A stretch of DNA of 33,292 nucleotides, taken from NCBI GenBank assembly GCA_003614675.1, contig ML002409.1:1-33292 (forward strand), given 5' to 3'. Below, in pieces: positions 1,098-33,292 of the stretch. Each line of letters starts with the position of its first letter. Positions within the stretch are counted from its first letter, which is position 1. The position numbers and the translations under genes were made by a program. This DNA is from Dimargaris cristalligena (lineage: Eukaryota). The notes under the pieces were generated by a model. It saw only the letters and a list, made by a program, of their open reading frames with translations. It made no database searches and had not been told where the DNA came from.

Positions 1098-2048
1098 AGC
1101 ATTTATAGCACAGATGTAATAATCCAATATATTATATAAGTTGCTTAATACTATAGCCAGTATTGTCCAATTATATAATTCCATCCCGGAACTAGGTGAG
1201 CCCCGTAGTTGAGCGGTGGGCCATTGTTCCTACTTGGTCAACCGTAAACCGGCGGCCTCACTCGACTCGGAAAAGGCGAAGTTCCAAATCTCCGTATACG
1301 CATTAGTAGGTTTCCCGACTTGTCTTTTCCAATACTCCATGGTCCTGTGGAATATATGTTGGCTACTTCAACTAGCGGAAAAAGAAGAAAGCCCGGGGTA
1401 CTAGTCGCTCTGATATTTGACCACTTCTATTCATTAGCAAATATCTATATATCGGCTTTGAGAGGTGGAGGCAGTATGGAATAGGGTATAGGTAGCCCCA
1501 TAATAGTCGAAAGGTGGAGGCAAAACGTATCCGGCACCATTTTGCCGGACTTTTCACTTTGGAATGATGTAATTATGGGCCAACCTAGGCGTGCTGCTAT
1601 TCCATAATATATAATCGCCCATTAGCGTGCACGGCATAGTGCGGTTTTTCTCCGGCGAAGGAGGAGTTAGGAGTAGACGAGGGTGGGGCTCGAGTTGAGG
1701 CTCGGGGTCAACTCCATTCTTCACCGGGACAAGGTAGCGTTCAACCGAGAATTCCTGTATACCCTGCAAGCCAATGGCTTTTTATTAAAGGTTCAAACTC
1801 CATCACACCCGATCCGAGTGATTTTCTCTAACCATCACTAATCATACTACTATTTTCCCTGTGCATTGAAATAGCCAACGACCAGGCCAAGGAAAGTCGG
1901 CAAGGCAGGTCGCTCGTTGAATAAAAAATACCCCCGCCAATGGGTACATAAAACGAATAATTGGCGCTAAGGAAAATAGTCGGGTATTTCGAAACCGAAA
2001 GAGGGGAGGGGTGATGTATAGCAGTAGGCTTCCTTTGGATCACGCAGA

Positions 2049-2056
2049 TATAAATA
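2049..2056 (+). promoter_or_regulatory. Probable TATA box of secreted paralogue 1
   Basis: TATAAATA lies ~230 nt upstream of ATG 2281, inside cacgcagatataaatag, which is conserved in the paralogous promoter (19179..19186, - strand). Confidence 0.6.
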
Positions 2057-2280
2057 GCTATGGAAAGTCCCCCCTTCGACACTTATCTACATCTTGCCCA
2101 GACAAAGTAGCTTTATTTTGCCATCTCCCTCTGATAATAATTTCCTATATTAACTTAGCTGTTGTTCACATACGCCTGTTCATCGTGCCGTCCTTAGCCA
2201 TTTGGTACGTACAACATTTCCCCCGCCCCAAACTTTTCTCTTCGACCCCCGCTCATCGATACCCTGACAGCTTCTCTATT

Positions 2281-3372
2281 ATGAAGGTCAACATCGCTGC
2301 TATTGCCGTGGTCGCTACCGCCGGTGTATGTATGTCTACCGTTTCGGCCACTCCCCTATTAGGGTCTAGTAGCTCCAATACCAGCAGCGCTGCTGGAAAC
2401 CAAGTTACGGCTGAGAATATCCATCCTTACTGCGCGGCATTCATGAATGTCGCCAACAAGGGCCTGTCCGCCAAATACCGTGCAATTAAGCGTAAATTCG
2501 ATCTTTCATCTTATGGAACAGTCCAGGGAACGGGTCCAGGGAGCTCCACGCCATTCACCAAGGAAAAGCTGGCTGCTTTTGAGAAGCTTCAAGCCGTCTT
2601 TTCTGATGCCTACAAAGGTAAAACTAATGCTGCATTGGACGAGGTACCTAGTACCAATCCCGGCATGGTGAGCTACGCCCTAGAAGTCACGGCCAACGGT
2701 ATTCGTCCGTCACTCGTGAATGACCCCGGAATAGCTGGTTATTTCAAGGCCTATAGCCAAATGTCCAAAAATAAGCGCCCAACTCGCTATTTAATCCTCG
2801 ACTCCAAGAACCCCGTGGACATGGAGACCCAAAAATGGCTACAGGACTGCTATGGCGGCATCCTCGGGTCGCCCAACACCGCCAATGCCCCACTATACGT
2901 TCCGGTTAACGATAATATGATACCGTCAGTCGGCGGCAATTCCGATGGATACAATTCAACGCCCTCTGACCCAGCGTTGGCTACCGAAGGCAAGGTTGGC
3001 GACTCTAAACTTCCCACTGGCCAAGACCCGTCATCTATCAATGGCCCCAGCAATCCCTATCCCCCACCCCTACCTACCCATGTTCAACAATACAGTGCTC
3101 AACAGTCCCAGTCGAGCCAGCAGTTCAACGAATATAACGGAGCTTCCAATATTCCCAATTCTAACCCCCAGCACCTGTCTAACAATGGTCAACAGTATAG
3201 CAACCCTCAGTCCAATCCGGTTTGGCAGCCTTATAACGTTAACGGAGCTACGGCTGCTCCCTACGCCTACCCCGCACCTCCCACGACCCAGGGTGAGCAA
3301 TACAACACCCCTCCGCTCTACGTAAACCCGACCAATGGAAACTATATAAACCCCAGCACTGTGGCCATCTAA
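2281..3372 (+). CDS. Secreted protein, unrecognised 'PYC-NGIRP-YLILD' family, paralogue 1 (363 aa)
   Basis: ATG 2281 begins a signal-peptide-like N-terminus (MKVNIAAIAVVATAGVCMSTVSA|TP). A conserved two-Cys domain is shared with 17919..18929 and 10762..11684, followed by a P/N/Q/S/Y-rich tail. The ORF-track extension from 2011 overlaps the TATA box and is treated as UTR. Confidence 0.85.
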   Translation: MKVNIAAIAVVATAGVCMSTVSATPLLGSSSSNTSSAAGNQVTAENIHPYCAAFMNVANKGLSAKYRAIKRKFDLSSYGTVQGTGPGSSTPFTKEKLAAFEKLQAVFSDAYKGKTNAALDEVPSTNPGMVSYALEVTANGIRPSLVNDPGIAGYFKAYSQMSKNKRPTRYLILDSKNPVDMETQKWLQDCYGGILGSPNTANAPLYVPVNDNMIPSVGGNSDGYNSTPSDPALATEGKVGDSKLPTGQDPSSINGPSNPYPPPLPTHVQQYSAQQSQSSQQFNEYNGASNIPNSNPQHLSNNGQQYSNPQSNPVWQPYNVNGATAAPYAYPAPPTTQGEQYNTPPLYVNPTNGNYINPSTVAI

Positions 3373-7026: not shown

Positions 7027-8310
7027 TTAATTACCACTGGCGATCCAATTTTTTATTTGAGCACCCCAGTTCCTTATGTAATTCAAGGGATTAGTACCTT
7101 GGTTATGCCACACCGAGAAAGTCGTGTACGTGTTGGTAAACGGCGCAGATTTTCCATCAGGCAGGCCGAGTACATAGCTACATAGAGGCTTGTTTAGCTG
7201 CATGTCCTTCAGTTCTTCAGCTGGTACCGGAGTTATGTTGAATATGCCATACAGATTATTCCTAGACCTAGCATAACCCATTACGCTGGCACACTCCGCG
7301 ACTATTTTGAACATGATAGATGATATGGGCGGTAGGTTTTTAGCAGTTAAAGTAGTGAGTGCCACCGTCTTCTCCGTTACGGACGGGTCATTAAGTCCGG
7401 CCACGATCATGGGCAGGCTACAGGTTTTGGTTGCACAATAGTTCAGTACTCTGACCCAACCCTCTCCCGTCGCGGACTCGGCGGCGATGGCCCATAGAAT
7501 TTTTTCAACCAAGATGGTTTGCATATAAGTAATAAATGCAATGCGATCCGAGTCTCCCGCTGGGGAACGGCCCACGGTAAGGTTAATCCAACGGGTCATC
7601 AGCTCATCACCATACGTATGCAACAACTCCTGGACGTTACTAACGTATTGTAAAACTTCCGCCGGATATTGGGCCGCGCACCGAAGGAGTGGGAACAACA
7701 TGGCCTTTTGGTTATCCGACACGCTAGTCCAATCGACTTCCTTGTATGGGGTCGGAGTTCCCGCCGCGGTAATAGTACCCCTGCTGGCGCTGAGGGTGAG
7801 ATGGGATTCAAGATCTTTGCGGATCCACCCCAGGTAATCATCCACTAGTTCAGGGTCGGCGGTTTTCGAATTGTTCTCCGTACCATCTTGTATTACTTGT
7901 TTAAATACAGCGGCCATGCCTTGAAGTTTTTGGCAGTTAAATGGTCCTTGTACGTCGGCCTAGCGGATTGAGCGATGTATAATAGACGACACAAGGGTGA
8001 GAGTTAATATATATATGCCAAATAAGATAAGTTGGTGTGTAGGGGTGGGCCCGTTTAGGCCGACTCGATAAATAAAGCTTCGGTATAGGTAGTAGTCTGT
8101 ATTGGCCGATAGGACAGGGCGCAGGCCGAGGTTACTTACATGGTGTTTTCTTTCATTGTTCAGCTCAGGGGCCACTTTACTTGGACTTTTTACGTCTTGA
8201 TAGTTCACCATGCGAAGAGGACGGACAAAATCACCACCTCCTCCGTACATACCTAAGACCATTTGACAAGCGGTGGCCATTAAGCCAACCGACAGGATAA
8301 TATAGTTCAT
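7027..8310 (-). CDS. Secreted orphan protein, two exons join(8310..8140, 7959..7027), ~367 aa (alternative ATG at 8331)
   Basis: Signal-peptide-like MNYIILSVGLMATACQMVLG. A phase-0 intron GTAAGT...ATTAAC...CTAG joins ORF 7960..8472 in frame to ORF 7027..7917 (..ERKHH|ADVQGPFNCQNFKGMAAVF..). No domain recognised. Confidence 0.8.
7960..8139 (-). other. Spliceosomal intron (180 nt) of the secreted orphan gene
   Basis: Donor GTAAGT at 8139, branch-like ATTAAC, acceptor CTAG at 7960. Splicing restores the frame. Confidence 0.8.
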
Positions 8311-8649
8311 TGAAGGGGCGTGCTTGGTCATTGTAATCTCGTCAATTGGACTGGATAAATGAACAGGTACAAGATGATTTTCCGGGACTGATGGGTTCAC
8401 CACGCTAACTGTGTGTCTTAATAAAATTATGGACAGGGAGTTGGCAGAGAATACAACGCAGCGGCTGTTCAAGGCGGGGTTTTCAAGATGAAATAAGTAA
8501 AATACCGTGTTGTTAATAATATGGTCTATAGAGGTGGGAGTGGTGGTGTGGAAGGAAGGAAGGAAGGGAAGCTGCCATGTGTACTTTTATATGTATATAT
8601 AAATATGTATGCATTCGTACGAAAAACCAAGGTTCATGTATAAGGATAT

Positions 8650-10761: not shown

Positions 10762-11684
10762 TTAAGCGGTAACTAACGTTGCCGGGTCGGGCGGAGGGTA
10801 GCCATAGCTATTGCCCAACACTGGAGCAAGCTGCTGGCTGGTGTTTGGCCCCGGCTGGTTATATTGGTTAGTTTGCGATACAGGCATTCCCATACTCTGG
10901 GGGGGATAGGCATCTCTATGGATGGGAGTGGGAGGGGGTGCAATATAGCCTTCAACAAGCGGGGAAAGCCCTAGAGGGTGATTAGTTTGGGCGACGGGGT
11001 TGTATTTGGTGTTGGTGCTGGGTGCACCCGGAGTGAAGGACTGATGCCCCGGATTCAGCGGAAGATATTGATTAGGAGTCGTTGCCATTGGCTTTACTGC
11101 ATTTTTTTATACGTGGCAAAAATATCCCCCATTTTTTCCGTGTCAGCCAAGGCCTTATAGCAGTGGCCAATCAACGCCATGGCCACCTGGTGTCCGGGAA
11201 TGCGACGGTCCAAAATAAGGTATTTTTCCGGTTTCTCGCCGGCCATTTTCGTCACACTTCGAAAGACCCCCGCGTCAAAAGTATCCTGAGCCACACGGGG
11301 TCGAATGCCATTGGGAGTTCGCGTGAGCGCAAAACTCACGTGGCCCTGCTCTTTGCTAGGGGCATCGGCCAGGTGTTCACCGCCGACTCCTTTGTAGCCG
11401 TTTCGAAAGGCCTTTAGCAGCAGTTTATAAGCAGCATCGTACGAGGCGGACATGCCACTGAAGCCAAGTTTCAGTTTGAGGCTGAGGTAAACGCTGCGCA
11501 ACTTAGCCCGCAGCTTGGGACGCCGGATATTGAAAAGGGGCTCACAGTAGGGTCGAAGCGGAATATCGGGGACAGTGTCACTGGATGGGAGGGGTTTGTG
11601 GAAGCCTAGAAATGGAGAGGACGACACGGTGGTCAGCATTATGGCCATAGCAACGCCAACCAGGGCGACCGTACCTAGTTTCAT
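10762..11684 (-). pseudogene. Secreted 'PYC-NGIRP-YLILD' family paralogue 3, frameshifted at an A7 run (196 aa as written; ~307 aa if A8)
   Basis: Signal peptide MKLGTVALVGVAMAIMLTTVSS; motifs RPYC, GYKG, SFALTRTPNGIRP, PEKYLILD, HCY. One extra A in the run at 11102..11108 fuses ORF 11094..11684 with ORF 10762..11088 (..YKKNAVKPMATTP..), restoring the P/N/Q/Y tail seen in the paralogues. It could equally be an intact gene with a homopolymer sequencing error. Confidence 0.7.
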
Positions 11685-11862
11685 GGTTGCAAAGATGCAG
11701 GAATCTCACCTCGGAAAAATAGAGAAGCCAAGGGGGCTACTCTAAACAACGCAGTAGATATAACCGGAAATGGGCAAATAATAAATGAACAATTTAACCA
11801 AGAAGCTGTTAAAAGGGAGCAAAGTACCTAAACTAGGAATGCAAGGGAAATGCAGCAGTAGG

Positions 11863-17918: not shown

Positions 17919-18929
17919 TTAGACGGCGGCAGTGCGACGGTTCTCAGAATATTCGTAAGTCTGGCCTATGTCGAGCGGAGGGGTGTTGTATTGCTCACCC
18001 TGGACCGTGGAGCGTTCAGGGTAGGCGTAGGGATTACTCGAGGCTCCGCTAGCGCTATTCAATAGCTGGTTTGGGCTGGAAAGATGAGCATCGTACTGTT
18101 GAGCACGGGGGGGCGAGGGGGCGGTGTAGGAATTGGAGAGGTCATTGGTAGACGACAGGTCTTGGCCAGTGGGGAAGTTAAAACCGCCGGGATTACCTTG
18201 GGTAGCCAACGCCAGGGCAGAGGGCGCTGCATCGGATCGATTGGGATTGCCGCCGAGTCTCGGCATCGTACCATTATCGACGGAAACGTCCACTGGTATA
18301 TTGGCGGCGTTAGGTGGTGACCCGAGGGTGCTACCATAGCAGTCCTGCAACCAAATCTTGGCCTCCTGGTCCACGGGATCTTGGAGGTCAAGGATTAAAT
18401 AGCGAGTTGGGGACTTATTATTGGACGATTTATCATAGGCATTATTATAAGGCACTTCGCTGTGGGTTTGCACAAGCGACGGACGAATACCGTTGGCCGT
18501 GATAAACAGGGCGTAGCTCTCCATGCCAGGATCGATACTAGGTGTCGCGGCCAACCCATCATTAGTTTTGCCCTTGTAAGCATTATAAAAGGCGGATTGG
18601 AGCTTCTTAAAAGCATTCAGTTCATTCTCGGTGAAGAGCTTGTCTTTCTTGGTGAATATCGGGAGATTCTTTCTACCTTTTCGCAAGTCACTTTCATGAG
18701 CTGAAATAATTATTTTACGCTCAACGGCACGGTATTTGGCACTCAAGCCCTTGTTGGTGACATTCTGGAAAGCCGCGCAATAGGGGTGGAGCTCCTCGAC
18801 AGGAACCTGTTCCTCGATAGCGTTGTTGGTCTTGGAGTTGCCCAACCAAGAGACGGGAGTGGCCGAAACGGTGGACACACATACACCGGTGGCAGCGACC
18901 ACGGCGATAGCAGCGATGTTGACCTTCAT
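17919..18929 (-). CDS. Secreted 'PYC-NGIRP-YLILD' family paralogue 2 (336 aa)
   Basis: MKVNIAAIAVVAATGVCVSTVSA|TP signal peptide, nearly identical to paralogue 1. HPYCAAF, NKGLSAKYRA, AYKGKTN, TANGIRPSLV, PTRYLILD and WLQDCYG are shared; P/N/Q-rich tail. Confidence 0.85.
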   Translation of the reverse strand: MKVNIAAIAVVAATGVCVSTVSATPVSWLGNSKTNNAIEEQVPVEELHPYCAAFQNVTNKGLSAKYRAVERKIIISAHESDLRKGRKNLPIFTKKDKLFTENELNAFKKLQSAFYNAYKGKTNDGLAATPSIDPGMESYALFITANGIRPSLVQTHSEVPYNNAYDKSSNNKSPTRYLILDLQDPVDQEAKIWLQDCYGSTLGSPPNAANIPVDVSVDNGTMPRLGGNPNRSDAAPSALALATQGNPGGFNFPTGQDLSSTNDLSNSYTAPSPPRAQQYDAHLSSPNQLLNSASGASSNPYAYPERSTVQGEQYNTPPLDIGQTYEYSENRRTAAV

Positions 18930-19178
18930 AATAGAGAAACTAGCAGGGTATCGATGGGCGGGGGAGGGGGATAGACCGAAGAGAAAAGCTTGGGGTGAGC
19001 GATATGTCGTACGTGTCAAATGGCTAAGAGCGGTGCGATGAACAAACGTAAGCACAAGAGCGTAGGTGAACAACTGCTAACCTAAAATAGGTAAGTGGAA
19101 TCAGAGGGGGAAGGCAAAATAAAGCTACTTTGCCTGGGTAAGGTGTAGATAAGTGCCTTAGAGGGTTCTTCGCCCACC

Positions 19179-19186
19179 TATTTATA
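19179..19186 (-). promoter_or_regulatory. Probable TATA box of secreted paralogue 2
   Basis: TATAAATA on the - strand, in the same conserved context as 2049..2056. Confidence 0.6.
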
Positions 19187-20194
19187 TCTGCGTGGCCCAG
19201 GCTGATTCTATTGCTATACACCTCCCCTCCCTTCTTTCGTTTTCGAAATATCCGACTCTTTTCTCAAGCGCCAACTATTCGTTCGACGCAGCCATTGGCG
19301 GGGGGGTCCTTTCAATAAGCGACCTGCCTTGCCGACTTTCCTTGTCCCGGTCGTCGGCTATTTTAATATACTGGAAAAATGTCAATACAATTGAAGATAG
19401 CTGGACGAATCCACCCGAACCGGATATAATTAAGGTTGAACCCCGAGTGAGTGACCCTTGACCTTTAGCACAATAGACGAAAATTCTTAATTGAACGTGA
19501 GCGTCTCCCTGCGACAAAAGGGAGTCGGCCCCCCAGCCACAACTCGAGTCCTGCCCTAGTCTACTCCTAACTCCTCATTCGCCGAAAAGTAATCGCACTA
19601 CACCGTGCACTCTAGCGGGGGGAAATATTTAACGGAATAGCAGGACGCCTAAATGGGGCCATCACTACGCCACTCTAAAGTGAACAGCCCGATTAGACGG
19701 CACTGAATACATGTTTCTTCCACTTTTCCAGTATCGTGGGGCTGCCAATGCCCAATTTTATACAGTCTCCACCTCCCTGAAGCCGATACATATGTCTTTA
19801 CCTACCAATGTATAGTAGCGGGTTTCTATCAGAGCGGTTATTACCTCAGATTGGATTTGTTTACAAATGGTGAAAAAGGTCGACGGATATTCCGTCGGGC
19901 TGTGGGGTATAGGAAAAGCAAAGTCAGGCAGTCTACCAATGCGTATACGGATAGTTGGGGCCTTATCTCTACTATGTTGAATGAGACCGACAGTTAAGGG
20001 TCAGCCAAGTAGGTGTAATGGCCCAATGTCGAACTAAGGGGCTCAACTAATTTCCGGATGGAATAGTTCAAGTGCTTACTACCATCCACACTGTAAAAAA
20101 TCATAATATACCTCGACTTTCTTGCTATTGGTTTAAATGTGGATATCATTGAATGCAAAGCCATTGTCCTAAGGATTCATGAACAGATGCATTG

Positions 20195-21294
20195 GAGGCC
20201 AATAGTAGCCAAGTCTTCACCAGCATCGCCATACTTCACCCCTTTTACGGTCCGAAATCGGGAGTCGGCTAGTGAAAAAATAATTCAACTGCGCCCTTTC
20301 TGTCCTAGTTACCGCTTAAATTATTAACCTTGCTACCTAGCTCCCTCCCCTGACTGGAATCCCCCTCCTTCGAAACAGCGGCTCTACAAAGAGGAACTAT
20401 GTCCTAAATGGGTCCTCGCCGATCATTTCATGAACTTCAGAATTCTATTCAAACTTTCCAAAAAAAGGCATCGAGAAGGTTAGGTGGCTCTGGCTTACAG
20501 GAGCTAGGCCTAGTAATGCGGAAAATAGATTAGGAATCCATCTTGGGATATTTCAAGCTCGACGAGGCAATTCCCCAGCCTACTGGAAAAGAATTGCCCA
20601 AAGGGGTAGACAGGCGGGACTCTGGGTTACTTTAGCCTATGGCTAATGGTCGAGATAGTTGACGAGGTGGGGAGAACGTGATGTTAATAATGCTATGAGA
20701 GATTGGTGGCAAATAATATAGGGACTTACTAAGGGATTTCCCCATGAATTGCCAACAACGCTCTTTTTTTCATAGATTCCCAAGGACTTTCTTACGCTTA
20801 TATGGATAGTGAAATGCTATTGATGGTGAGTAAAAGGGGTATATATATTAAAAATAAAATATGTATAAGTTGGCAATAAGTCAATGGTGGGGAAATATAC
20901 TGGTGTATCAAATTTCTGGCCATAATAAGTTGCCAAATAAATGTTAACCCGAATTTAGTAAGCTAATTTTGAAAAATAGGAAACAGATGGTGGCGAGAAT
21001 GGGCATTATCCCCTAGTAGTCAACTATGGCCAGCCAGTCAGGCTGTACATTACTCACCTAGTTACTGTCAGGAAATTGCTTAACCTTCCTGACACACATT
21101 TTATATTATAGTGCCATTGGGGATGAGATTAGTAGGGCATTTGCAATGGTGGCTCTATATGAAAGAGGGACTGGATAGTTTATATTGGACATTGCTGTTG
21201 ATGACAGGCATAAATGGTATTCATAGGAGGGTTAATATATCTCACAAATTGGTACTATTTATACATCCAGTTACCCTACATATTTCTTTTTTTA
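20195..21294 (+). repeat. Duplicated block A, copy 2
   Basis: Direct-orientation homologue of 1..1097; ends at the mariner left TIR. Confidence 0.92.
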
Positions 21295-21296
21295 TG

Positions 21297-22602
21297 CACA
21301 GTCTGACCCAAAAGTTTTGTCCCTGGGGCTGTAAAATCAGTTTCACATACACCATCTATTAATATGAAACATTTTTAAATAGGTAAATAAAAACTCTATT
21401 ATGTGGGAAAATTTGAAAGCTCTAGCATTTTTAGTTTTTTTACTATAATTTTTCTCCTAAGTTAACTTTTCTTCCCTTATTATATATTCAAGATTCAAAG
21501 TTCAATTGAATATTAGGCTCTGTTATAAGCTTAGAAAAAGTACCAACGAGGCCCTGGAGATAATCCAAAATATCCATGGGAATGGTGCTGTGACTCTTAG
21601 GACTATTTTCCATTGGTTTGCAAGCTTTAAAGAAGGTTGGGAAGAGATTGAGGATAACTCCCTTTCAGGATACCCAAAGGAAGGGTGTAGCAAGCAATAC
21701 ATCTAAATAGTCACTGATATCCTGAAAACCAACTGGTGGATAACCACCCAATTGCTCGAGGATATTACTGGAATACCTAGGTCTACTATTAATAGGATTC
21801 TGGTCAAGGATTTACGTCTGAAAAAGATCTGCACCCAGTTTGTCCCCCACCAGCCAACTAATGACTAAATAATGTCCCAAGTGAACTACAGCTTAGATAT
21901 ACAGAAAATGGGTAAAAATAACTGAAACTTTACCAGAAGTATTGTTGCTAGTAATGGGACTCGGTGCTTCTAATATGAGCCATTAATGAAATATGACAGC
22001 TCTGAGTGGGTAGGTACTGAAGATCCAAGATTAAAGAAGTTGCACCTTCAGCTGAGCTAAACCAAGACTTTGTTTACTGTTTTATTTAACTCCAAGGGGA
22101 CCACCCACTAGGAATTCACTCCCCAAGGTCAAACAGTCACTGGTCATTACTACCTGGGAGTCTTAACATGCCTACTGGCAAGGGTCAACCATGTAAGGCT
22201 AGAGTACAAGTAAGGATCCTGGAGTCTCCTCCATAATAATGTACCTATACACAAGTATAAAATTATCTGGGCATATTTGGCTAAAAGAGGTATAGTAGTA
22301 CTTGACCACCCACTGCATTCACCTGATCTAGCCCCAGCTGCCTTCTGGCTATTCCCAAAACTTAGGCTGGCTATGAAAGGGGAGTATTATAGCTCTATAT
22401 AGGACATCCAAGACACTATGACTGACATCCCAAAGGGCATCTTGAAGGATGGGTTTCCAAGCTGCTTCCACTCATTGTTTAGGTGATTCCAGAAGTGTGC
22501 TAATGAAAAAGGATTTTATTTTGAATTAACACAAAAAATGTAAAAATCTTAAACCGTTTTCATTTTAGAGCACTAGTGATATAACTTATGGGTCAGACGG
22601 TG
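21297..22602 (+). mobile_element. Full-length (~1.3 kb) mariner DNA transposon (Tc1/mariner, DD34D), inactive
   Basis: Imperfect ~42 bp TIRs: left cacagtctgacccaaaagttttgtccctggggctgtaaaat; right (revcomp) caccgtctgacccataagttatatcactagtgctctaaaat. TA at 22603-22604 and TG (probably mutated TA) at 21295-21296. Internal transposase remnant. Confidence 0.93.
21491..22543 (+). pseudogene. Mariner transposase pseudogene: single frame, 9 premature stops, catalytic Asp residues lost
   Basis: In-frame translation gives TIFHWF..FKEG, FVPHQP (WVPHEL-like), SNGTRCF*YEP (GDETWxxxYDP), GQTV..YYLGVL, WSLLHNNVP.H (HDNA), HSPDLAPAAFWLFPKL (YSPDLAPxD) and GFYFE. There are 34 residues between the second and third catalytic positions. 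The start is approximate. Confidence 0.93.
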
Positions 22603-23449
22603 TAAGCTAAGGAACTTATATACCAAAACTTGGCTAAAATACTTATATGCTCGGACAACACTGTGGAGTTGTCCTAAAAGGAATGCTTAAGAGATCTGCC
22701 AGTGTCTGGAAAACGCTGATGGAAACATAGCAGTCTTTGGATGAATACCTGGGTGTGAAGGATGTGGGATACACCACACGTAACCGGGGGATAAACTAGT
22801 AGGGCATCGTGGCAAGGGATGTTGCTACGGGAAGGCACTTTTGCCTAGTAAGATCTAATGTAGGCGAGTTGCGCGGAAGGGTCTCAATCCTATTAGGGTG
22901 GATTAGCCAGCGCGACACCTAATATAAGAAACTTTGTTTTGCTTTATGACTGGGTTGATAATGTCCCGTGCATGTACATTTTCGACTCAAGGCACTCCGG
23001 GTTTCGCCTATTGATGGCTTTATTGAATCTGTGATCAGCGAGTTGATATTGTAGATGTCCAGTACTATACGATTAAAATCGGAACCCATTTTAGATTAGG
23101 TTTGATACCTGGTTACATTCATTCTGACACCGTTTCCCGGTCTATATAAAACGGTATAATGGTAAGATATGATTTGGGGTCGCCTGTGGTTGCCCACCTA
23201 TTTTACCAAACGGCAATCAGTATCGCTATACATAACTAGCCGAGTGGTTTTTAATATCACCCACACACGCCTCCCTTTCTTCGGAACAACTCGGTGACTT
23301 ATAGTATTGACTAAAATGGAGGAGTCAAGTAGATAATGCGGGCCACCCCGATCTACTAACATCCCTGGATATTGTTTAGAAATGAATTTATAAAATATTT
23401 TGGGGAAAACTTTGTTTAATTAGGCCAGGGGGTCCAAAACCCATTTTGG

Positions 23450-30779: not shown

Positions 30780-33292
30780 CTATGGGCAGTAGCACATCCC
30801 AATTATGCAGTAGTTCTATATTTAAGTCAAAGTGATGAACTGAATGGTGCTAAACCCAGAGAAAAATACATGTGAATTGGTGTAATACTACATACCTGTT
30901 GGCCCTTCTAATCTGACCTAATCCGGCTGGATGATTGCCTACTATATCAGGCCTTATAGCACCATATTAAACTCCCCATGGTCACCCCTGGTACTATGGG
31001 GCCATCATTTATCTTATACCCACTCCCTGGTTGGACTTCCTGGCATTCACACTAATTACTCTACTGTCAATCCAAGGACTCTTCCAGTTCCCATGAGAGT
31101 CTTCTGGATACAAGGACCACCCGGCTAGCCTACTTATTGATACCTTAGTTATGTAGTCCTTTCCCTTGGGGGCCTCCCTTTAGAGTTGTTCCCCATATAT
31201 ATATAACTGGTCCCAATGGGGCCCAGTTAGGTTCAGCAGCTTATTCCTACCCCCCAGTTTACCCCAATAAACTCACTATATACACTCATTCCCTTATACT
31301 GACCAGTAAGTGTGCACTGCTGCACATCCCTTGTATAGTTGCCCCATGTGCATTTATTTGGTTAGTATTGCCCTGTCCCTAATACTAGTAGCCCACTTGG
31401 CCAAGTCTAAGCCCTGCCTACCATTAGAAGCCTACCCCCAGGGCTCTTGATGGATTAAGAGTAGATAACCCAGGCAACAATACCAAATAGCCATTTTTTG
31501 TGAGAATATCACAAACTCATTGACATGTAACTTAATTTTCCTGGCATAAGTGCTGGATAAAATATGGATTGTCCCTGGGCTATGTGGCACAGATAGATGA
31601 CACGCCTACTTTCTGCCCACCCCAAGCTAGTAATGGACTAATTGAGGAAATCACTTAGCCTCACTTTTATAGATAAGTAAACACCCCCTGCCCCCATTCC
31701 AAACCTATTGTTTTTTGGTTGGCCTTCCTGTCTGTTGTAATCCATTACTCCAGCATCAGCAATGTACTACAACAAACTCCTGGTTGACTATTCTGCTCTT
31801 CCATTAAAAGACTAGCATCAATGGTTTCATCATAGAGACTTTGTTGTATACCATTAGTCATTTTGATTGACTACCCCCCTCTTTTCCTTGGTGTGAACCT
31901 GGCTGCCACTATGTTTCCCCTTGGTGATATTATTGCATCATTAGTTGCTGCCCCTTTAGCGACCACCAATTCAACAGTAAACCCTACTCATCATAACACA
32001 ATTGGTCACTTAAAATTTTACTGGGCAGATGATGTATCAAAACTACCTGCTCTAGTGAGTGAAAAGGTTTTAAACCATTTAGAAGTCTCAGCCTGTTCCT
32101 AGTGGACCCTCTGTGTTGCATGGGACTGACATTTTCAATGCTCCAATTGTTTTTGAAAAGATAGGTGTTCTCTTTCAATTCACCAAATTTATGCATTTTG
32201 GTTGATAAGTTTTATCATTCTAGACCAAACATACTCTATTGACTGATACCAGTATGTGCAATCCTATGGTCTTTTCTAAACATCAATTTATCTAAATCTA
32301 CTGGTTTATTTTCTAATATATCTTTATGCCAAATAATAATACCAAGAATAATGGCCCCCCTTCCCACCTATCAATTTAGACAAAGTCATTTATGAATTAG
32401 TGTGAAGGAGATCCAGCAAGAATAAGTTCAAGCCTACTCAGGCTGAAGTATTGACAAACAAGTGGCTGGTCTATGTCCCAATGGGGACTACTAACATGGT
32501 TTAGGAAGCTATAGCTAGAATGGGATATTGTTGCTGAACTAGTAGTTTGGTTGAATCAACCAAATCTGGGACATCATCAAATGGTACTTCAGATATCAAT
32601 TGTGCCAACTTTAAACAGATACTTAACACTCCACTGACTAGCCACATTCAATAGAAATATGTTAACCTAAGCTAAGTTCCACCAAGTGATTCCCCCACTT
32701 GCATTTATCCATCACCCAGACGGCAGATATGGTGGTCATATGACCACTTGCCATGATTGTGTCACCCATCCTCTGCCCTTCAGACAAATCTCAAATAACC
32801 CTACAGATTGGCTATAACCCACTGAATTTCGGGTCAGTAATAAAGATCTGTAAAGTATTTGGAATTACTGATTGTCATGCTCTATGTTATGAACCTTGAT
32901 AATAATGCAGAACATGGTACTTGGGTACCTATACTGGGAGGGTGACACTGACCAGTGCAATGCCTTAATATGCCCATGGATCAAATGGGGTCCATCTGCT
33001 CATTTGGGGGGCCATCACTGTCTTGCCCACATTGGGATTGCCCAACAGGACACCCTCTTTGCCAAGCCCATTAACCAGCACTGGTTCAAGTGTAGGACTC
33101 CCTAGTTCAATTAGGACTAGGTGAAAAAGAACACTCTCTAGCTCATGTTTTTCAAATGTTAATGTGCAATTGGCTTTATCAATAGTATTGATACTAACTT
33201 TGACCTTATGTTGGAGCATGTGTAAAGAACTGAACTTAAATCCTTGAAAACTGAACTTTATTTGAAAAGATAGATAATAAAAGGGAAAGTGG
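30780..33292. other. Strongly CpG-depleted, mutationally decayed tract (repeat or pseudogene remnant)
   Basis: I count only about 6 CpG in ~2.5 kb despite abundant C and G. No long ORF; composition resembles the mariner copy. Confidence 0.65.
31911..33170 (+). pseudogene. Possible decayed secreted-protein gene
   Basis: Signal-peptide-like MFPLGDIIASLVAAPLA at 31911 and protein-like frame-1 segments (FNRNMLT*AKFHQVIPPLAFI; MQNMVLGYLYWEG..LAHIGIAQQDTLFAK) interrupted by stops. Stop density is not clearly below random, so support is weak. Confidence 0.3.

Follow-up and report, generated by a model that had tools for sequence, protein, structure and literature searches.

What has inactivated a transposon whose transposase gene can still be followed in a single frame and is interrupted by nine stop codons? 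The window analyzed here (the whole stretch of 33,292 nucleotides) contains such a mariner element, and elsewhere in it are genes for an SLC12-like transporter, a GPI ethanolamine-phosphate transferase, and an ERCC4-domain protein. The first-pass annotation attributed the state of this element to a genome defense that is either RIP-like or based on non-CpG methylation.

Structure and State of the mariner Element

The features considered are listed in table 1. The annotated position of the element, its frame of ~345 codons, and its nine stops (five TAA, two TAG, and two TGA, all in one frame) were confirmed. All six remaining CpG were also recovered, which corresponds to an observed/expected ratio (o/e) of 0.12, against ~0.8–1.0 in neighboring genes. 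Each stop can be derived by C>T changes as had been proposed: six from CAA or CAG, two from CGA to TGA, and one from CGA to TAA by a double hit. In addition, a TpG>TpA hit has turned the start codon into ATA, and TTA stands in place of the natural stop codon. The absence of frameshifts noted previously is true of this copy, which has a single in-frame 3-bp deletion, but not of the family, as 6 of 12 copies carry frameshifts.

The element resembles Mos1-like DD34D mariners in its length (~1.3 kb), short terminal inverted repeats (TIRs), TA duplication, and HTH_48 and Transposase_1 domains, both of which were detected in it by Pfam. The D-34-D spacing can be read in its intact relative, the transposase P0125 (Asp residues 181, 276, and 311), and Pfam and P0125 together reveal the Mos1-type HTH and the DD34D domain with its YSPDLAP motif. 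It differs from such mariners in that all 13 family copies found here are dead, the closest intact relative being P0125 from another assembly. The terminal arms are 80% complementary, and the other full-length copies have TA on both flanks. In public DNA runs of two studies, contigs match long parts of the element with 0–1 differences, although one of them may itself be the source of the window sequence. Because of these matches, the element is not an assembly error. A search of public runs of all kinds listed five DNA runs lacking a library description.

Table 1.— Coordinates of the mariner element, the comparison sequences, and the host methyltransferase gene.
Feature	Position	Strand	Remarks
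Full-length dead mariner, DD34D type	21297..22602	+	1306 bp; 6 CpG left
Left TIR, similarity region of 41 nt	21297..21337	+	Inverted-arm pairing
Right TIR	22562..22602	-	Inverted-arm pairing
TA target-site duplication, right side	22603..22604	+	Left side (21295-21296) now TG
Transposase pseudogene	21482..22528	+	HTH_48, Transposase_1; nine premature stops
Premature stops of transposase	Start at 21704, 21866, 21923, 21971, 22058, 22109, 22211, 22400, 22484	+	
Left flank of mariner	21100..21296	.	7/7 CpG of paralogous far copy absent here, 0 reverse; binomial p = 0.016
Control host-gene duplicate	1178..3101	+	Inverted partner 18085-20064, 71% identical; 103 and 112 CpG kept
Control duplicate, no ORF >=100 aa	20197..21295	+	Partner 3-1093, 75% identical
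High-copy 580-bp repeat, unrelated to mariner	30896..31480	.	Comparison family
DNMT1 gene (L039)	G000:C729:9500-14769		Second half not found elsewhere in assembly

Family Copies and Ancestral Reference

A DNA search of the host assembly (G000) gave 17 matches, four of which were TIR self-matches and were dropped, leaving 13 places including the window copy. Seven of these copies, the window copy among them, are full-length, and the others are 81–87% identical to the window copy. All 10 PF01359 matches in the genome belong to this family, and no further mariner families were found. A 170-bp piece (L013) was excluded from the copy statistics, which were calculated from 12 copies. The phylogeny is nearly star-like, as any pair shares at most five derived states over 733 non-hypermutable columns. 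Similar sequence precedes the 5' truncation points of three truncated copies (L008, L010, and L011), where another repeat has probably inserted.

The CG-aware family reference has an open frame of 349 codons, a GC content of 0.49, and a CpG o/e of 1.07. The likelihood reference is matched by P0125 at 87% identity, the individual copies at 62–73%, and the window copy at 68%. The motifs SGRP, GDETW, HDNA, FDSKG, CARFVP, and FQY, which the first-pass annotation had assumed to be ancestral, are all present in P0125, but the position of the assumed RRIT is occupied by RRMT. Since P0125 is intact and has the expected motifs, the ancestral codons are checked rather than only inferred. Loose calling of ancestral CG (83 sites) was rejected for false calls, for example at Trp codons; a likelihood mixture (43 sites) and codon anchoring on P0125 were used instead. 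The closeness of P0125 to the family reference might reflect horizontal transfer, or else a relative in which a copy is still active.

As the reconstruction shows, the family started from a CpG-rich ancestor (~49% GC, CpG o/e ~1.07) and expanded in a small burst, after which its copies died in place.

Context Dependence of Substitutions

We applied a four-state likelihood model to the 12 copies, in which any CA, TG, or TA column may be a hidden CG. The estimated number of C>T changes per cytosine was 1.65 at CpG (bootstrap 1.3–2.2), 0.35 at CpA (bootstrap 0.31–0.38), and 0.046 at CpC/CpT, the last being 1.3 times the T>C background of 0.035. The CpA rate is 7.6-fold that of CpC/CpT (bootstrap 6.3–9.3) and the CpG rate ~36-fold, with a CpG:CpA ratio of ~5:1 per cytosine. 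Equality of CpA and CpC/CpT was rejected (likelihood-ratio statistic 588, 1 df), as was equality of CpG and CpA (statistic 262). The proposed transitions at CpA/TpG in addition to CpG are therefore real, and tabulation by context over the collected copies, which had been suggested as a check, showed changes that are neither confined to CpG nor free of context bias.

Residues anchored on P0125 gave a similar picture: CpA was hit in 112/403 cases, CpC in 12/443, and CpT in 25/451, and CpG was lost in 151/155. Changes of Trp codons (TGG) led to TAG in 11 cases and to TGA in one (p = 0.006). It had also been claimed that passive deamination of methyl-CpG is insufficient. This is correct for the CpA changes, on which rejection of the hidden-CpG model and the codon-anchored test agree. 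CG>TA can be explained by sequential hits: the TA share at ancestral CG sites was 0.209, against 0.208 under the sequential model. Thus, no special double event is required and two concurrent rates suffice.

The window copy itself shows 100 C>T changes, 24 T>C changes, and 18 transversions (transitions 124/142), with CpA hit at 23/124 sites and CpC+CpT at 8/320 (p = 3.5e-8). Among its 43 ancestral CG, 3 survive, 16 are CA, 14 TG, 8 TA, and 2 other, whereas 44 of its 173 CA/TG sites are now TA. Across the mariner family, C>T changes have removed nearly all CG steps and roughly one in four CA steps.

Neither a 5' base nor a +2 base preference was found at CpA. First hits at CpG did not favor TpCpG (T 34/76, A 32/54, C 34/71, and G 31/61), nor did changes between retroelement pairs (TCG 38/103, against 0.43–0.48 for other contexts). 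Methylation at CHG/CWG was also considered and rejected, as CAG (77/371) is not favored over other CAN (0.25–0.28). No selection is visible at CpA sites, which were hit in 169/476 cases when the change was synonymous, 245/739 when non-synonymous, and 50/187 when stop-forming.

Strand, Load, and Position of the Changes

Hits formed 320 strand runs, where 325.7 were expected, indicating that strand tracts are absent. No excess of same-strand pairs was found in nine tests (lowest p = 0.156), and the strand balance was homogeneous over the 12 copies (p = 0.21). A single copy (L007, 1/12) appeared clustered in one variant of the runs test, which used the loose reference (p = 0.001), but this weakened with the likelihood reference (30 bp, p = 0.026; 100 bp, p = 0.22). 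The CpA load per copy ranged from 0.17 to 0.36 over the 12 copies and was less overdispersed (P = 0.035) than the transversion load (P = 4e-6).

Toward the element ends (terminal 60 bp), more CG was kept (13/44 vs. 8/375 elsewhere) and less CA was hit (28/153 vs. 470/1614 elsewhere). As both kinds of hits are fewer there, one shared mark is indicated. This fall-off ties the CG and CA hits to one domain, with which methylation and pairing are both compatible. In the flanks, some of which are themselves repeats, CpG o/e was 0.25–0.56 within 300 bp and 0.96 at 1–1.5 kb. The CpG loss in the left flank (table 1) is a weak sign of spreading.

RIP indices had also been suggested as a check, and the composite index did not indicate RIP: it was -0.07 in the window copy and negative in 9/13 copies.

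Control Duplicates and Other Repeats

The host-gene duplicate was flat over contexts (CA 49/167, CC 67/246, CG 45/169, and CT 53/170), with transversions at 197/1921 positions. The duplicate without a long ORF showed an excess at CpG (24/40, p = 0.0006), and the excess at CpA was not significant (42/110 vs. 70/226, p = 0.22). Both controls are old and one is coding. RIP in Neurospora hits duplications above ~400 bp and 80% identity. Because the two controls are only 71–75% identical, they are a poor test of this homology rule, and a genome search for a young duplicate of that gene found none. The paired genes at 1178-3101 and 18085-20064 have secreted-looking products with low-complexity tails and belong to no Pfam family; further small ORFs of secreted appearance are located at 7960-8586 and 11094-11705.

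The high-copy 580-bp repeat was sampled at 25 loci of at least 40, in 12 disjoint pairs (40 of 1066 candidates were scored). Its pairwise C/T differences were 285/605 at CpA, 146/767 at CpC, 122/756 at CpT (268/1523 for CpC+CpT), and 28/30 at CpG, which is the same CpG plus CpA pattern as in mariner. The repeat-linked bias that had been proposed is thus seen in repeats and absent from the host-gene duplicate. Among the sequences tested, the spectrum is restricted to repeats.

Between the 580-bp repeat and a second high-copy repeat lies a 1.7-kb stretch (31500-33200), which is as CpG-poor as the repeats (o/e 0.05–0.07) and has one 68% relative in the genome. No Pfam match was found in six frames of 31400-33292. 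The second repeat starts at the contig end (33220-33290) and is more conserved (91–97% identical).

Five retroelement pairs differed at 169/401 CpG and showed a mild excess at CpA (199/1402, vs. 243/2627 at CpC+CpT; odds ratio 1.6). They are weak evidence because decay in the host is mixed with divergence during active replication. One of the near-identical repeat pairs, 97.9% identical over 799 bp, differs at CpG in 8/32 and at CpA in 3/95 cases. Both this pair and one of 99.8% over 1331 bp could be assembly redundancy. Many reverse-transcriptase matches are located in open frames of >1000 codons. Five retroelements (L104, L113, L103, L106, and L107) have long open frames with a CpG o/e of only 0.07–0.22, which suggests lineages already avoiding CpG.

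Methyltransferases of the Host

Profile searches of the assembly with PF00145 and TIGR00675 detected two loci, DNMT1 and DNMT2. The DNMT1 protein contains RFD, BAH, and methylase motifs I–VI and runs off its contig (C729) after motif VI; complete Dimargaritales DNMT1 proteins have 1742–1875 aa. Its best matches are from Dimargaris, Tieghemiomyces, and Dispira (49–50% over residues 380–1097), and in a phylogenetic tree it falls within a 99/98 clade with Dimargaritales. This grouping places the host outside Dikarya, a possibility raised in the annotation. Dimargaritales belong to Kickxellomycotina.

Of the methylases that had been recommended for search, DNMT1 (along with DNMT2) was found, but no RID/Masc1 and no DIM-2 were detected in the incomplete assembly with the two profiles and two DNMT1-like protein queries. 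As the assembly is incomplete and lacks even the C-terminal half of DNMT1, another methylase could be missed. The recognition loops of Dimargaritales DNMT1 appear ordinary in comparison with other DNMT1/MET1 proteins, and no structural reason for activity at CA was found in them.

A weak search for T:G repair glycosylases with PF03167 gave a gene of virus-like character and a single piece of 32 residues (E = 0.01). In the former (L115; G000:C2211:1-2017), the uracil-DNA-glycosylase-like ORF adjoins a second ORF, possibly as part of a viral fragment in the assembly. The neighboring ORF presumably resembles a D5-type helicase-primase, as in giant DNA viruses.

Possible Origins of the Decay

Judging from the sequences, the decay is probably best explained by methylation of transposons, strong at CG and weaker at CA, with deamination following gradually. 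The host would place 5-methylcytosine on transposon DNA, densely at CG and to a lesser extent at CA, almost sparing CC/CT. The DNMT1-type enzyme, which is present, would be the most likely writer. Methylcytosines would then change to thymine singly, on either strand, and over a long time. As the model fit shows, CG first becomes TG or CA, and these, like the original CA/TG, proceed to TA at ~1/5 of the CG rate. The outcome would be irreversible inactivation as in RIP, arrived at gradually. As CG decay refills the CA/TG pool, standard RIP indices are blind to the CA part. Support for this reading comes from the rates per cytosine, the TA share at ancestral CG, the lack of strand tracts, the even CpA load, the joint fall-off at the element ends, the 97.9% identical pair, the DNMT1 of the host, and the repeat-restricted 5mC of Phycomyces (PMC11258239). 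The CpG-only signature of fungi with just a DNMT1/Masc2 enzyme (PMC4352252), the gaps in the assembly, and the small CpA excess in the five retroelement pairs speak against it.

In mammals, the excess of CpG changes over other contexts is roughly tenfold. The CpG rate found here, relative to CpC/CpT, is above this value and could mean enzymatic mutation. It is conceivable, if rather doubtful, that a RID-independent repeat mutator exists outside Dikarya, in which active C>T conversion at CpG and CpA is carried out by DNMT1 or an unrecognized enzyme. If true, this would be a RIP-like defense with an origin independent of RID or older than it, and it would escape dinucleotide RIP indices, the CA/TG pool being refilled.

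Another scenario requires two writers, with DNMT1 causing the CG decay and an unseen de novo DIM-2-like methylase marking or mutating CA in repeats during vegetative growth. The sharp preference for CA over CC/CT suits a dedicated enzyme, the host assembly has gaps, Dim2-dependent mitotic C>T at CA has been shown in Zymoseptoria tritici (PMC8016269), and a DIM-2 homologue has been reported in Phycomyces (PMC11258239). However, our two profile and two protein searches returned only DNMT1 and DNMT2 (the protein queries being DNMT1-like, none a true DIM-2), CG is spared in Z. tritici and is the main target here, and CG and CA hits fall off together at the element ends. We consider this scenario unlikely.

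A true RIP-like defense, that is, a premeiotic and pairing-dependent process acting on CpR with CG preferred over many sexual cycles, with RID absent or divergent, seems improbable. It would agree with the dominance of transitions in the window copy and with the confinement of the changes to repeats with short leakage into flanks. Moreover, RIP at CpG plus CpA has been cited for Aspergillus (PMC4352252), RIP-index signals have been described, with caveats, in Entomophthorales (PMC11105155), and many rounds would also erase strand tracts. On the other hand, there are neither strand tracts nor a strand skew, and the load is uniform over copies. Reverse-transcriptase frames and near-identical pairs (the latter possibly redundant in the assembly) have survived, and the 1.7-kb stretch with its single distant relative is equally CpG-free. 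Reports of RID concern Pezizomycotina and a small number of other Dikarya (PMC5751038), and it was not found here. Of the two options offered by the first-pass annotation, non-CpG methylation is the better fit. RIP in the form it had stated disagrees with a CpG-first spectrum, strand-balanced hits without tracts, a similar load in all copies, the persistence of intact and near-identical retroelements, and the failure of our searches to detect RID or DIM-2.

We regard as very improbable the idea that the CA changes are by-products of CG damage through error-prone repair, or the work of a deaminase acting on repeats, without CA methylation. Error-prone repair near 5mC has been raised for Tuber (PMC4165359), and CpA within 4 bp of an ancestral CpG is indeed hit slightly more often (127/328 = 0.39, vs. 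0.26–0.33 further out). However, CpA at least 15 bp from any CpG is still hit in 120/364 = 0.33 of cases, CC/CT barely exceed the T>C background, and CpA shows no preference for a 5' or +2 base. Finally, an artifact or a genome-wide bias (mis-inferred CG, shared ancestry, amplification damage, or a general CA>TA bias) deserves almost no credence and is largely refuted: the ancestor is reconstructed, some of the loose CG calls were false, and the control duplicates are old with one coding, but the mixture with hidden CG still rejects equal CpA and CpY rates, the outside protein P0125 gives the same rates with TAG prevailing at Trp codons, few derived states are shared, the host-gene duplicate is flat, and the public runs match.

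Comparison with Known Systems

RIP in Neurospora crassa is premeiotic, depends on RID and DIM-2, prefers CpA, and leaves strand-biased mutation tracts. The decay described here resembles it in C>T changes within repeats, preference for CpA over CpC/CpT, stops that kill the transposase, and leakage into flanks. It differs in that CpG exceeds CpA fivefold, strand tracts are absent, the composite index is negative in 9/13 copies, intact retroelements persist, and no RID was found in our searches. Even with about a quarter of CA sites mutated, the index comes out negative, and surveys based on it would miss such genomes.

The Dim2-dependent mitotic mutator of Z. tritici is similar in that C>T changes are directed to CA in methylated repeats without a sexual cycle (PMC8016269). 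That process needs Dim2 and leaves CG untouched, whereas the mariner copies are hit mainly at CG and our searches found no DIM-2. In Microbotryum, Puccinia, and Melampsora, CpG also dominates, a DNMT1-RFD enzyme is present, and no RID was found (PMC4352252, PMC3318451). Their decay is confined to CpG, whereas in our case CpA is hit 7.6 times as often as CpC/CpT and TpCpG is not preferred.

In a survey of 10 genomes, CpA signatures accompany RID, and fungi with DNMT1/Masc2 only have the CpG signature alone (PMC4352252). CpA-directed repeat mutation has been tied to RID- or DIM-2-bearing ascomycetes. The hierarchy of CG over CA, and of CA far over CC/CT, in a Dimargaritales fungus breaks this pairing of RID/DIM-2 with CpA, and the CpA part of the decay is unusual for an early-diverging fungal branch. 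In Phycomyces, 5mC is restricted to repeats and occurs in CG and CHH, and a similar restriction is cited for Linderina (PMC11258239). The methylation table searched in that article lists Linderina and not Dimargaris, and relatives of Dimargaritales are described as 5mC-poor (PMC11258239, PMC13297926). All 130 strong RIP genomes of a further survey, whose genome list includes a Dimargaris species, belong to four ascomycete classes (PMC12543289), and its supplement may hold per-species results touching novelty. We found no prior description of the CG plus CA pattern in Dimargaritales in the openly accessible literature searched. What the mariner family adds is an outside check of the ancestor, rate estimates, and tests for strand tracts. 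The methylation reading also predicts a measurable mark at CA on transposons.

Transposons of Tuber melanosporum show the same order of C>T changes, with CpG primary and CpA secondary, restricted to transposable elements (PMC4352252, Table 2; PMC4165359). These elements have ~80% CG and 30% non-CG methylation, and the authors favor MIP over RIP (PMC4165359). The difference is that Tuber, an ascomycete, is listed as having both RID/Masc1 and Dim2 genes, whereas only DNMT1 and DNMT2 were found in the Dimargaritales host. On balance, the mariner decay is best placed as a variant among the methylation-linked forms of transposon decay, not within RIP.
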